64,000 nucleotides of DNA from Syntrophales bacterium (GCA_040767195.1 JAXGPA010000001.1:192001-256000), one strand, 5' to 3'; positions 23,867-30,601 are shown, counted from the first letter of the stretch. The notes: generated from the letters alone by a model not told the origin. Numbers and translations are program-made.

Positions 23867-25903
23867 ATGGAGGCCAGGCGGTTTTTTCCCTTCCTTTTTA
23901 CAGCCGTTTTTCTCTTCCTTCTGCTTTGCCCTTCAGGCCGCGCATCAAGCGCCGTGAAGGTCCACAGGGATGTGTGGATGAAAAACGAATTCGGTGAAAG
24001 GATCACGCCGAAGGACAATTTCGAGGATCCATACAGTCCCAGAAACACGTGCGGGAGCTGCCACCCATACTCGACCATCACCTCGGGGTTCCACTTCCAG
24101 CAGGGGTTCGACGAAATGAGCGACACCTATGATCCCCGGAAACCCTGGATTCTATCCCCGGGAATGTACGGAAAGTGGTGACCGCCGGCCAATCGGTCCG
24201 GCCGTGCAGCCGCCAAAAAAAACAGCGACCCGAAACAGATCGACCTCACCGCCTATGACTGGATCGGCGGGTTCGGAAAATTGAACCCCGCCAAAAAGAT
24301 CAAGAGCCCGGCCTGCGGGTGGTGCCACCCCGGCGGCGGTTCCATGGAATACGGACGCAGGCCTGACGGGACGCCGGACTTCTCCATGAACCTGATCCAG
24401 GCGGAGAGACGGAACACGAACAGCCTGGACGGGGATTTCATGTCCCTCATTTCACCGGACGGCAAAAGCCATTTCAAGGAAAGCGGGGTCGTGGAGGGGG
24501 ACTGCCTCATCTGTCACACCGGAAGATACCAGTTCGGCAAGCGTAACCAGCAGATCAATCACATGAACTACCGGTGGGCCGCCACGGCCGGCGCCGACAT
24601 CGCAAAGATCGAGGGGTCCATCTTCAAATTCGACAATCCCGATGCCCCCCCGGGTGCCAAGGGTTTCATGGACGGCACCTGGAATTTCTCGGAAAGACCG
24701 AAAGTGACCTACCGATGGGACGACCGGAATCTTTTCAGCCGGGAAGGGCAGCTGAAAGGCACACTGATCTCAAAAACCGTGGAGGTTAAAAACTGCCTCC
24801 AGTGCCACCAGGGACCGGACGCCAAGAAGGTGGGGTGGGTTCACAAACCGGAATTCGACGCCCATTACAAGGCGGGATTCCGATGCACCGACTGCCACGG
24901 TCTGGTGGGAAACACCCGCTACGGCCGCATGGAACACCAGATCGCCAAGGGCTGGCATCCCCTGGGCAGTGTCCGGGACGACCTGGACGGCGTGGACATG
25001 ATGACGTGCCAGGCCTGCCACATCGCGGGCCGGTATCGGCCCAGCCGGCCCGGCCTGCCGGAAAAAGCAAAAGACCCGACGAAAAAGCACGCGGAGAAAT
25101 TCCCCGACGTGGCTTTTCACTTCAACCGGATCAGCTGTGCCAACTGTCACTCCACGGGGCAGCCCGGAATGTCCGGATACCTTCTCGACATGGGACCGGG
25201 GGGTCAGATCTGGTACACCGCGGCCACGCTGGAAACCATAACCTGGTCCGATGATTTCGGGAAACTCGCCCCGAAACCCTGGAAACCCTGGAGCACCCTC
25301 TTCGACGCCCGGAACGGCCTTGGAGAGCAGTACATCCCCCAGGTTCCCAAGGTGTCCCAGTGGTTCGGTGAGAAGATGGACAACCTGGAAGTTCGGCCGA
25401 TCTCTCTCAGGTACGTCAAGAAAGCTTTCGGGACCCTGAATTCCCGAACCGTCGTGGACGTCCGGAACACCGACGGCCAGGCGGTTAAAAAACCCACCGT
25501 GGCCAGGGAAGAGGAAATCCGGGCCATGATCGAGGCCCTGACAGGAATGGGGTTCACCAACGTGGTGTTTGTCTCCGACAGGGTTTACGAGCTGAGAGAC
25601 GGGCAGGTAACCGCCTATGAAGACCCGCTGACGGCCCACCCCCACACCTTCCCTGTCCATCACAACATCGTCCCTCTGGACCGCGGGACGACTTACGGGC
25701 AGAAAGGGAAACCGGAGGGCTGCCGGGACTGCCACTGGAAAGACTCGGAATTCTTCACCAAGATGCTCATTCGAAATCCCGGCCGGTTCCTACTGGAGGA
25801 CTACCCGGTACCCCGGGAGCCGAACGCGGAACCCCAGATGATCCCCTGGGGCTTTGACGAGGTCCCTGTTCCCCCGGAACTGAAGGCGAAAAAGGAACCC
25901 TGA
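23867..25903 (+). CDS. Secreted octaheme c-type cytochrome with in-frame TGA at codon 105 (probable selenoprotein, 678 aa)
   Basis: ORFs 23867-24181 and 24281-25903 are in the same frame (offset 414 nt) with no other stop between; readthrough gives SPGMYGKW-U-PPANRSGRAAAKKNSDPKQIDLTAYDWIGG; signal peptide plus 8 CxxCH (CGSCH, CGWCH, CLICH, CLQCH, CTDCH, CQACH, CANCH, CRDCH). Confidence 0.8.
24184..24207 (+). promoter_or_regulatory. Candidate SECIS hairpin
   Basis: CGGCC (24186-90) pairs with GGCCG (24200-04), loop AATCGGTCC, immediately 3' of the TGA. Confidence 0.5.
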
Positions 25904-25905
25904 AG

Positions 25906-28613: not shown

Positions 28614-29783
28614 TTGAGCGATCATTCCCCGGAAACCGCGGCAGGCGGCATTAAGAAACGGACCCTTCCGGACAGGCTGTTGTCTTCACCAAGGCTTACC
28701 GTCGGCCTTCTCCTCGTCCTGTCAGTGGCATCGATCGTGGGAACCGTTTTCCCCCAGGGGGAACAGGCCCGTCACTTCCTCTCCCGTCTCGGCCCCGCCG
28801 CCCTTTCCTTCGTCGGCTTTCTTCAGCTTGACGACTTGTTCCATGCCACCTGGTACATGTTCCTCGGAGGGCTTCTCGCCCTCAATCTCCTGTTCTGCCT
28901 TTACCGCAGGTGGCCGTCCCTGAAAAAAACCCTTCCCCCGAGGGCTGTCTTCACGAGAGGGCTTTACCGTTTCGTCGTCCACGGGGGCGTCCTGATCATC
29001 CTCGCGGGAGCCGCCTTGAGCCATCTTTTCGGCATCGAGGCCTACATGGAAATCCCCGTGGGTGAAACGGTCGAACAGGCTTTTCTGCGGAAAGACGACC
29101 GCCCCCTGGATTTGGGCTTCCAGGTTCGCTGCGACGCCTTCCATTTTGAACGCTATGAATCGGGCATGCCGAAGGAGTACCGGTCGGAGCTCACTTTTTT
29201 CAAGGATTCGTCACCGGAGCGGAATGCCCCTGTCCGGGTGAACCAGCCGGTTTCGTTCAAGGGCATCACCTTCTACCAGTCGGACTTCCGAAAAATTCTC
29301 AAAGCGCGCCTGGCTGTACGAAACGAAGGCGAGACATGGGAGGTGGAAAGACTCGAAGGCCAGGCTTTCGATCTGACGGGAAAGGGGATGAACCTTTCCG
29401 TCCTCGTCGTTTCCATCATGGAAAACGTCATGACCATGGGGCCCGCCGTTAAACTTCTGGTCCGGTCACCGGAGGGATGCCGGGATCTGTACGTCTTCAG
29501 GGACATCGACCGGTTTCTCGAGAAGATTCCCGATCTTTACGAGCGATACCCCCCTTTCGATCCGGGAAACATCGCACCCTGGCGATTTGAACTGGCCGGG
29601 CTGGAGGAAACCTACGTGACGGGCCTCATGGTGAACAGGGATCCCGGGGCGCCCGTTGCCGCCGGGGGCGCCGCCGTGCTCATGGCCGGGATGCTTCTCA
29701 CCTATTTCAACCGCAAGAGGGAAGATAACGACAGGCGCGGCCCCGCGAAGAAGAACAGGCCAACCCGGGGAGGCGGCCCGTGA
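28614..29783 (+). CDS. resB: Cytochrome c biogenesis protein ResB (System II)
   Basis: SIVGTVFPQ, LFHATWY, NLLFC, H in TM3, VNQP..FKGITFYQS, RDPG. Confidence 0.8.
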   Translation: MSDHSPETAAGGIKKRTLPDRLLSSPRLTVGLLLVLSVASIVGTVFPQGEQARHFLSRLGPAALSFVGFLQLDDLFHATWYMFLGGLLALNLLFCLYRRWPSLKKTLPPRAVFTRGLYRFVVHGGVLIILAGAALSHLFGIEAYMEIPVGETVEQAFLRKDDRPLDLGFQVRCDAFHFERYESGMPKEYRSELTFFKDSSPERNAPVRVNQPVSFKGITFYQSDFRKILKARLAVRNEGETWEVERLEGQAFDLTGKGMNLSVLVVSIMENVMTMGPAVKLLVRSPEGCRDLYVFRDIDRFLEKIPDLYERYPPFDPGNIAPWRFELAGLEETYVTGLMVNRDPGAPVAAGGAAVLMAGMLLTYFNRKREDNDRRGPAKKNRPTRGGGP

Positions 29784-30601
29784 ACACAACCCTTCTTGCC
29801 GGCACCCCCTTCGTTTACCTCGGCGCTTTCCTCATCGACCTGACGGGAAGGGTTACCGGTAAAACCGCCTTGTCACGAACGGCGAAAACAGTGGCAGCGG
29901 CAGGCTTCTGCCTCCACACGGCGGGATTGGCCCTGAGATGGGTGGAATCGTATCACCTCGGCTTCGGTCATGCCCCTCTTTCCAATTTTTATGAATCCCT
30001 CATTTTTTTCTCCTGGGCGATCCTCCTGGCCTACCTTATTCTCGAGTTCTGGAAAAAACCGGGGATTCTCAGTCCCTTCGCCCTCCCCGCCGCTTTTCTT
30101 CTCATCGCCTACGCATCTTACTCGCCGGACGTGGACAGCCGGATTCGACCCCTCATCCCGGCCCTGCAGAGCAACTGGCTCGTCACCCATGTCATCACCT
30201 GCTTTCTCGGATACGGCGCCTTCGTCATCTCCTCCATTTTCGGCCTCCTCTGTCTCATCAAGGGAAACGATCCCCTTTCGACCCGGGACGACATTCCGGA
30301 AAGGGATTCGCTCAGCCTTTATCTCTACCGAAGCGTCGCCGTGGGCTACGTGTTCTTCACCCTGGGCATCATAACGGGGTCCGTCTGGGCCCATTCGGCC
30401 TGGGGGTCCTGGTGGAGCTGGGACCCCAAGGAAACGTGGGCGCTCATCACCTGGATGATATACACGGCCCTGCTCCATCACCGCCTCGGGGGAAAGGACC
30501 GGGCGAAAGGCATGGCTATCCTGTCCCTGGTGGGTCTCGCCAGTGTTTTTTTCACCTATCTCGGGGTGAATTATCTTCCCGGCCTTCACAGCTACCTGTG
30601 A
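29780..30601 (+). CDS. ccsA: Cytochrome c synthase CcsA/ResC (System II)
   Basis: HAPLSNFYES, PALQSNWLVTHV, WWD motif WAHSAWGSWWSWDPKETW, GLHSY. Confidence 0.92.
   Translation: MNTTLLAGTPFVYLGAFLIDLTGRVTGKTALSRTAKTVAAAGFCLHTAGLALRWVESYHLGFGHAPLSNFYESLIFFSWAILLAYLILEFWKKPGILSPFALPAAFLLIAYASYSPDVDSRIRPLIPALQSNWLVTHVITCFLGYGAFVISSIFGLLCLIKGNDPLSTRDDIPERDSLSLYLYRSVAVGYVFFTLGIITGSVWAHSAWGSWWSWDPKETWALITWMIYTALLHHRLGGKDRAKGMAILSLVGLASVFFTYLGVNYLPGLHSYL

Follow-up and report, generated by a model that had tools for sequence, protein, structure and literature searches.

The described systems closest to the operon analysed here are the octaheme enzyme OTR of Shewanella oneidensis, the selenocytochrome MccSep of Geobacter sulfurreducens, the CbcL/MtoC/MtrH group of quinol dehydrogenases, and the Sud/Psr system of Wolinella succinogenes. 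OTR (structure 1sp3; family TIGR04315) is a soluble periplasmic protein with eight CxxCH haems, in which Mowat et al. 2004 reportedly described a Lys-ligated active-site haem 2. It acts on nitrite and thiosulfate, i.e., also on nitrogen compounds (discussion of PMC13510729). MccSep (ExtKL, GSU2937-2936) is a pentahaem selenoprotein that reduces polysulfide and, less well, selenite; its selenocysteine (Sec) is located in a loop of an Ig-like domain at the C-terminus, beside the Cys-ligated haem 2, which forms the active site and whose Cys is strictly conserved (PMC13510729). CbcL of Geobacter is described in the available text of PMC6295460 as an N-terminal half with nine CxxCH motifs followed by six helices with a HydC/FdnI-like di-haem b domain. 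For Sud/Psr, it is proposed that a periplasmic rhodanese-type carrier supplies sulfane sulfur to a reductase fed by quinol, the catalytic subunit of which is a molybdopterin enzyme with the anchor PsrC. Here, we analysed a five-gene operon at positions 23867-30601 (+ strand) of a 64,000-nucleotide stretch of DNA from Syntrophales bacterium (GCA_040767195.1, JAXGPA010000001.1:192001-256000), which is called the window below. Its first three genes encode an octaheme cytochrome c, a rhodanese, and a CbcL-like protein, and the products of the operon are candidates for an uncharacterised electron outlet in syntrophic bacteria, in which menaquinol would likely feed the reduction of some compound of sulfur or selenium.

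The five open reading frames (ORFs) follow one another on the + strand and encode the octaheme cytochrome c (23867-25903), a tandem rhodanese (25906-26673), a CbcL-like quinol dehydrogenase (26645-28543), a ResB/CcsB-type System II cytochrome c biogenesis protein (28614-29783), and a CcsA/CcsB haem lyase subunit of System II (29780-30601), the first two being 2 nt apart, the next pair overlapping by 29 nt, the third pair lying 70 nt apart, and the last overlapping by 4 nt. The octaheme contains eight CxxCH motifs (residues 62, 150, 213, 310, 340, 381, 424, and 619) and the CbcL-like protein nine (residues 49, 72, 97, 121, 146, 174, 205, 248, and 276), giving 17 for the operon. The co-oriented genes, their junctions, and the 17 motifs, which a sequence-only reading of this DNA had noted, were all recovered from the ORF coordinates and motif counts. 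In the whole host genome (2.39 Mb, 98.8% complete), the two cytochromes of the operon were the only stop-to-stop frames of at least 60 aa with at least three CxxCH motifs, and multihaem motifs are therefore clustered here far beyond chance. One further frame had two such motifs (C7:290482-292308, - strand) and encodes a protein of 609 aa, dihaem in its N-terminal part and ending in a hydrophobic tail that resembles an anchor.

Conservation of the gene order was assessed in a species-representative genome collection, in which 273 stretches encode a relative of the octaheme; the best 80 of the 273 were used as loci. Neighbours were counted where the locus offered enough room, i.e., at least 900 bp for the rhodanese and at least 2900 bp for the CbcL-like gene. 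Under these thresholds the rhodanese was directly downstream of the octaheme in 71 of 72 loci, and the CbcL-like gene followed in 60 of 60. By comparison, a resB gene was within 700 bp of the CbcL-like gene in 26 of 55 loci with enough room, 1-4.7 kb downstream in 5, upstream on the other strand in 5, and outside the locus in 19. Since both partners were nearly invariable while an adjacent resB was found in 26/55 loci, the conserved unit is the octaheme-rhodanese-CbcL trio, with the haem lyase as a frequent neighbour and not a defining part. The three genes are tightly linked, which bears out the sequence-only reading. The single locus without the rhodanese, L091 (3032-7255, + strand), is a distant fused form on a Thermodesulfobacteriota contig: the octaheme part, a Sec-type relative with 39% identity, makes up the N-terminal end of a longer multihaem protein (at least 1,300 aa), no rhodanese comes after it, and a cytochrome c7-like gene is located upstream.

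Nearly all of the best 80 loci came from Syntrophales, Syntrophaceae, or Smithella. In a sample of the order, an octaheme match at E <= 1e-30 was present in 68 of 201 genomes and in 48 of the 143 high-quality ones, so the earlier expectation that such a module would be unusual in a Syntrophales-like organism did not hold. Its distribution was patchy by family: matches were present in, e.g., 16/19, 14/18, and 8/9 genomes of some families, as against 1/9 in that of the window. No description of the trio was found in our searches of the literature on Syntrophales cytochromes, rhodaneses, and selenoproteins, the supplements of which may list the genes. A comparative genomics study of Smithellaceae counts multihaem cytochromes as markers of direct interspecies electron transfer (DIET), and the available main text contains neither "rhodanese" nor "CbcL" (PMC13685792). 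Octahaem-rhodanese gene pairs were noted as putative sulfur-reduction determinants in Dethiobacter in the part of PMC10376724 that deals with them. The module is a conserved, uncharacterised quinol-to-octaheme chain that belongs with known kinds of system (OTR-fold octahaem enzymes, Sec-haem reductases, and CbcL-type quinol dehydrogenases) and is not categorically new.

Between 23867 and 25903, the octaheme frame is interrupted only by a single in-frame TGA (24179-24181), a putative Sec codon at residue 105 within the motif GKW-U-PP, and read-through yields a protein of 678 residues. The window and 78 related loci covering the region were aligned at this column. TGA was found in the window and seven loci with an intact haem-2 CxxCH motif and in one further locus in which this motif reads CGWTH; Cys was found in five loci, likewise with CGWTH. 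Gly occurred in ten sequences with a haem-2 motif devoid of cysteines, another residue in four with a degenerate motif, and in the remaining 51 of the 79 sequences residue 105 was deleted and the haem-2 CxxCH motif intact. The eight other TGA loci came from different assemblies, shared 39-82% protein identity, and contained no other in-frame stop. Protein conservation continued across the TGA, and remote relatives carried W-C-P/S at the same column. Bacterial selenoprotein genes show this pattern, in which orthologs retain the in-frame UGA and homologs have Cys in its place. SelA (604 bits) and SelB (360 bits) both exceeded their curated cut-offs in the genome. A candidate SECIS-like (selenocysteine insertion sequence-like) hairpin pair was predicted directly 3' of the TGA (24184-24213, + strand) and recurred in Sec-type loci, the second hairpin with the pattern C(C/U)GGC-CGUGYN-GCC(G/A)G. 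On this comparative evidence, codon 105 is very likely read as Sec, in agreement with the sequence-only reading.

That the TGA is instead a true stop, leaving a split or dead gene with only a 540-aa downstream product or none at all, is hardly credible to us. Database gene calls of Sec-type members are indeed shortened forms of 512-553 aa, and no tRNA-Sec was found in the assembly, from which tRNA-Ser was also missing. Several database octaheme proteins begin exactly after column 105, which is what UGA-cut gene calls would give. In addition, the signal peptide and haem 1 are encoded 5' of the TGA, so that a product without this part would have no export signal. The conservation on both sides of the TGA, the shared codon position in eight other loci with Cys in five more, and the intact SelA and SelB also speak against a true stop.

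The octaheme belongs to no specific Pfam or NCBIfam family, and neither the single sequence nor a 102-sequence profile matched the PDB significantly. Its relatives numbered 608 at E <= 0.001 among 7077 database candidates scored, none of them specifically named, and when 1.84 billion representatives were searched with a profile, 950 matched at E <= 0.001 and 197 at E <= 1e-30. A Cys-type homolog (P0014) fell only into generic cytochrome clusters of a protein atlas. An AlphaFold2 model built from 102 sequences (pLDDT 87.6, pTM 0.87) had 1sp3 as its sole Foldseek match at E <= 0.001 (E 7.1e-6), making OTR the only significant structural match of the predicted model. VIA-align to 1sp3 gave Z 11.5 and rmsd 4.1 A over 331 aligned residues with 19% identity, spanning OTR residues 1-436 and model residues 29-671; the runner-up reached Z 2.7 after re-ranking and Z 3.8 in a wide search of 48,161 representative chains. 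With the curated model TIGR04315 (octaheme_Shew), the cut-off of which is 375 bits, the octaheme scored no more than 9.7 bits (E 0.24) and aligned at model positions 89-251 only, and hmmscan did not list this family at E <= 0.01. Consequently, the octaheme carries a predicted OTR fold yet falls outside the curated OTR family. An inserted alpha/beta domain is predicted at about 435-600 of the model. In relatives of 860-908 aa (P0004, P0006, P0009; L042, L074, L076, L087), this domain (~490-600) is present three times in tandem.

Compared with OTR, the octaheme has the same number of haems and a signal peptide, a single hydrophobic segment at its N-terminus, which predicts a periplasmic location. 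It is ~240 residues longer, largely owing to the alpha/beta domain, contains a predicted Sec, and has obligate rhodanese and CbcL-like gene partners. The segment between haem motifs 1 and 2, which forms the active site in OTR, carries here U105 and a lysine, K117, that was invariant in 96 of 96 sequences; K117 is only a candidate equivalent of the lysine ligand said to occur in OTR. Seven His outside the haem motifs (H33, H76, H333, H357, H408, H418, and H599) were invariant in 102 sequences, as against eight haems, so one haem probably has no distal His ligand. No Cys outside the haem motifs was conserved among these sequences. With ~9 kDa of protein per haem by our arithmetic, the octaheme falls in the "peptide replete" class, to which catalytic cytochromes with >7 kDa per haem belong by a rule of thumb given in PMC7096707.

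A FastTree phylogeny of 78 sequences with midpoint rooting (L020 was dropped as too short) resolved into three groups. The window, L016-L019, and L025 formed a Sec clade in which haem 2 is intact, the distant L091 also being of the Sec type. In the second group, one or both cysteines of the haem-2 motif were lost, and Cys, Sec, Gly, or Phe occupied position 105; in the third, a large group, residue 105 was deleted and haem 2 intact. This joint evolution of residue 105 and the haem-2 motif would place the active site at haem 2. The tree suggests that Sec is the ancestral state in the octaheme family, and the window copy belongs to the Sec-bearing, possibly ancestral form. One metagenome-assembled genome contained two octaheme types (L031 and L074), each with its own partners. 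In the remote relatives P0256, P0285, and P0347, the C-terminus of the octaheme continues into a membrane domain resembling cytochrome b.

MccSep and the octaheme are both periplasmic multihaem cytochromes c, known or predicted, with one UGA-encoded Sec followed by Pro (DG-U-P and KW-U-PP, respectively), and each family also has relatives of the Cys type. Our literature search turned up no Sec-containing multihaem cytochrome other than MccSep. The two differ in haem number (five and eight) and in the position of Sec, which is C-terminal in MccSep and at residue 105, before haem 2, in the octaheme. No similarity between them was detected in the PDB sequence, profile, and fold searches, whose sets possibly did not include the MccSep entries 9WT8-9WTC. 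An assignment of the octaheme as an MccSep-type selenocytochrome was rejected on account of its eight haems, the lack of a conserved extra Cys, and the different place of Sec in the chain. The MccSep (ext) gene cluster also includes ExtH. A reference title within PMC13510729 names this protein a rhodanese-like lipoprotein of G. sulfurreducens.

The rhodanese of the operon (PF00581, 92.6 bits, two stretches) has its own signal peptide and is predicted to be periplasmic. Its first domain contains the catalytic Cys in the active-site loop C92-ESPW-C97 (FYC-ESPWC-LRS), while in the second domain Asp205 replaces it; Asp was found there in all 66 partner sequences, and D205 was invariant in 39 of 39. 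The nearest solved relatives are thiosulfate sulfurtransferases, and Wolinella Sud (1qxn) is a weak relative (E 2.9e-4). A pair of cysteines, C58 and C68, was conserved in 60/65. The domain-1 catalytic Cys was present in 38 of the 66 partners. It was kept in 12/12 loci with U or C at residue 105 of the octaheme and in 11/11 of the group with Gly or another residue there, and was lost in 28 of 41 loci of the residue-105-deletion clade; these counts reflect clades and not independent events.

The CbcL-like protein begins with a signal/anchor segment, and its N-terminal domain with nine CxxCH motifs is fused to six hydrophobic segments after residue 300 that form a HydC/FdnI-like cytochrome b domain, i.e., it shares the architecture of CbcL (GSU0274), MtoC, and MtrH. 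The b domain, of the Ni_hydr_CYTB/FdnI-like type, was matched weakly by PF01292 (29.8 bits, cut-off 30.1) and TIGR01583 (E 3.7e-8). Matches to the NCBIfam models ExtN/ExtO ("selenite/tellurite reduction operon") had E about 0.006 with 15 bits against a cut-off of 200. A published survey groups Syntrophus homologs with Geobacter CbcL (in the available text of PMC6295460), and no Geobacter name appeared among the 120 best matches. The gene differs from cbcL in always being paired with an OTR-fold octaheme and a rhodanese, and not with porin-cytochrome conduits.

ResB (PF05140, 197.7 bits) and CcsA/CcsB (PF01578, 167.6 bits; TIGR03144, 238.9 bits against a cut-off of 187.6) both exceeded curated cut-offs, so both subunits of System II are present. 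These scores, together with the PF00581 match, the nine c-haems, and the six helices with an FdnI-like domain, upheld the domain assignments made from the window. The two proteins would attach the 17 haems, presumably as the genome's general System II and not as a proven dedicated pair. The operon's resB is the only copy in the genome, and a second, weaker ccsA-like gene is located elsewhere. ResB was found in 7 of 9 other genomes of the window's family, although 8 of those 9 lack the octaheme. On these grounds the idea of a haem lyase dedicated to the module, its "own heme lyase" in the sequence-only reading, was rejected; adjacency to the trio in only 26/55 loci also speaks against it. The ResB of the operon is a short, 389-aa form. 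Within the window's genus, ResB has this short form (G000 C1:220692-221720; G079 C31:17719-18465), with 384-390 aa and about 100 bits, while in the other family genomes with a match (n = 6) the frames had 458-475 aa and scored 206-243 bits in five cases and 186 in G093. The short ResB may have been acquired together with the module.

Two anaerobic-digester RNA libraries of one study contained 0.78 and 0.70 of the sampled words of the window. Contigs of these libraries bridged all four junctions, as the sequence-only reading would have it for a joint transcript: octaheme/rhodanese (X4 24173-26096), rhodanese/CbcL-like (X6 25955-27076), CbcL-like/ResB (X6 27989-28713, X4 28360-28687), and ResB/CcsA (X4 29130-30057, X6 29265-29999). 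One contig per run started at 23808 and 23815, which is only a weak hint for the promoter. The promoter-like sequence TTGACA-17-TACTTT proposed from the window is present at 23760-23788 (+ strand) and is plausible as the operon promoter. Its -10 element is weak, agreeing with TATAAT at 3/6 positions, and it is not statistically distinct: it was absent from the list of a consensus scan, which gave two promoter-like sites in the region compared with 2.1 +/- 1.5 in shuffles. The scan found no convincing operon terminator (12 terminator-like sites, 10.7 expected), two + strand sites being located within the end of ccsA (30527-30570), and Rfam had no family inside the operon at E <= 1.

We tentatively interpret the operon, at somewhat less than an even chance, as a chain from menaquinol via the CbcL-type cytochrome to an OTR-like octaheme that would use the predicted U105 on sulfane sulfur or a related selenium or sulfur compound. 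Signal peptides point to a periplasmic location of the chain. Menaquinol electrons would enter at the b-haem domain of the CbcL-like protein and pass through its nine c-haems to the soluble octaheme, a path suggested by the fixed gene linkage and by the remote relatives with octaheme-cytochrome b fusions. The same fusions and the presence of MenA (MqnA was not found in the genome) favour a link to the quinone pool. Haem 2 would be the catalytic haem, as there is one invariant distal His fewer than haems (seven for eight) and the haem-2 motif changes together with residue 105. At this variable haem, Sec105 may act, by analogy with MccSep, as a nucleophile or ligand on the chalcogen substrate, and the rhodanese would deliver sulfane sulfur to the octaheme as a rhodanese-bound persulfide. 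We infer that sulfane sulfur, i.e., polysulfide or persulfide, is the favoured substrate, with selenite or tetrathionate as alternatives, and that the octaheme would be a Sec-haem reductase analogous to MccSep that arose independently, on the scaffold of OTR. The likeness to Sud/Psr would lie in a rhodanese-type carrier handing sulfane sulfur to a quinol-fed reductase, whereas the chain here consists of haems only. In line with the sequence-only reading, neither the operon nor the scanned flank genes encode a molybdopterin catalytic subunit or a porin (no porin family in Pfam).

A number of observations weigh against this interpretation. Because residue 105 is missing in 51/79 octaheme sequences and the catalytic Cys in 28/66 rhodanese partners, sulfur transfer is not a universal mechanism of the family, and what its members have in common may be simple electron transfer, or else catalysis at a haem that is open. 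As to Sec, Aragorn did not find tRNA-Sec, a result that is uninformative, as none of the 39 tRNAs in the assembly is a tRNA-Ser. (The assembly also lacks tRNA-Asn, and a tRNA-bearing region is probably unassembled.) The SECIS-like hairpin had covariation in 2/10 pairs in five sequences, in a region that also codes for a conserved peptide, and its single-sequence fold (z -0.40) was no better than shuffles. The operon is present in RNA libraries, and the contigs do not prove a single transcript since DNA carry-over is possible. The physiological role of OTR itself is unsettled, and electron transfer from menaquinol to polysulfide is uphill at standard potentials.

The chain might be as described and the substrate another one, which is unlikely in our estimate: a tetrathionate/thiosulfate, nitrite/hydroxylamine, or selenite/tellurite reductase serving respiration or detoxification, with sulfane sulfur not being physiological. 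The closest fold is that of an enzyme named tetrathionate reductase, OTR acts on nitrite and thiosulfate, and MccSep also reduces selenite (PMC13510729). Nevertheless, the obligate rhodanese, with its Cys kept in 12/12 Sec/Cys-type loci, points to sulfane sulfur or selenium rather than nitrogen oxyanions, and the weak similarity of the CbcL-like protein to ExtN/ExtO, which would suit selenite or tellurite, is far under the cut-off. A rather unlikely alternative is that the octaheme, periplasmic or exported, serves as an electron wire which relays menaquinol electrons from the CbcL-like protein to a partner organism or an acceptor outside the cell (DIET, humics, or metals), with the rhodanese-fold protein as a structural subunit and Sec only tuning redox properties. 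It would agree with the extracellular electron transfer for which CbcL is known in Geobacter (available text of PMC6295460), with the treatment of Smithellaceae multihaem cytochromes as DIET markers (accessible part of PMC13685792), and with the many sequences that lack residue 105 or the rhodanese Cys in which the trio is still linked. Such a wire is difficult to reconcile with the absence of a porin family or outer-membrane conduit from the operon and flanks, with a predicted fold matching the enzyme OTR and nothing else, with ~9 kDa of protein per haem, or with seven invariant distal His for eight haems. Moreover, Sec is costly and typically catalytic, and no cytochromes were apparent on haem staining of S. 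aciditrophicus cultured in DIET work, as far as the accessible part of the preprint goes (bioRxiv 10.1101/479683).

Reverse flow, in which the module oxidises periplasmic sulfide or thiosulfate and reduces menaquinone, would be conceivable from the literature: CbcL/MtoC/MtrH relatives occur in metal reducers and oxidisers, for which both directions are proposed in the available text of PMC6295460, and TsdA and SoxAX, which have a cysteine-ligated haem, oxidise thiosulfate (discussion of PMC13510729). DsrA was not found in the genome, which speaks against it. We regard this direction as highly improbable, and we know of no electron acceptor downstream of menaquinol in fermentative syntrophs.

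Syntrophic degraders of fatty acids and aromatic acids are thought to depend on a partner for electron removal, and what their few c-type cytochromes are for has not been explained. In the present genome, the only two cytochromes with at least three CxxCH motifs share an operon with a quinol dehydrogenase and haem-attachment machinery, and the trio was found in a third of the sampled Syntrophales genomes and is present in anaerobic-digester RNA libraries. If it reduces sulfur or selenium compounds, syntrophs would have a partner-independent electron outlet with a bearing on digester performance and on sulfur and selenium cycling, and a second lineage of selenocysteine-haem enzymes would exist besides MccSep. 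The Sec, Cys, and deletion variants would then offer a genetic handle on the mechanism of OTR-like enzymes. A bolder version, on the unlikely side but worth stating, is that "obligate" syntrophs of the Syntrophales perform a haem-only respiration of sulfur or selenium compounds: menaquinol from fatty-acid or benzoate oxidation would feed the CbcL-like protein and the OTR-fold octaheme, in which Sec at the distal side of haem 2 would attack rhodanese-delivered sulfane sulfur. This would be a second independent case of selenium-haem catalysis after MccSep, ancestral in the family and later lost, and would provide a long-missing physiological clue to OTR-type enzymes.

The flanks of the operon encode the housekeeping products ZapA, ZapB, 6S RNA, and alanyl-tRNA synthetase, as well as a DUF4412 protein, a CBM48-like protein, and a GNAT protein. 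Membership of flank genes in the unit was rejected, the DUF4412 and GNAT tblastn queries having matched 0/80 loci. The closest complete relative, L017, has other flanks, with an integrase and amidohydrolases upstream and a pyridine-nucleotide disulfide oxidoreductase downstream. Its phage-type integrase gene (L017:4492-5652, + strand) is located ~3.3 kb upstream of the trio and would fit mobility of the Sec-type module. In the window, the 6S RNA (21316-21507, - strand; RF00013, 112.2 bits, full length) adjoins zapA (21512-21799) and zapB (21817-22041). Just upstream of the operon, a small CBM48/AMPK1_CBM-like protein of 102 aa is encoded at 23209-23517 (- strand), and in both RNA libraries no bin exceeded that of this gene in summed contig depth (23.1 and 26.3).

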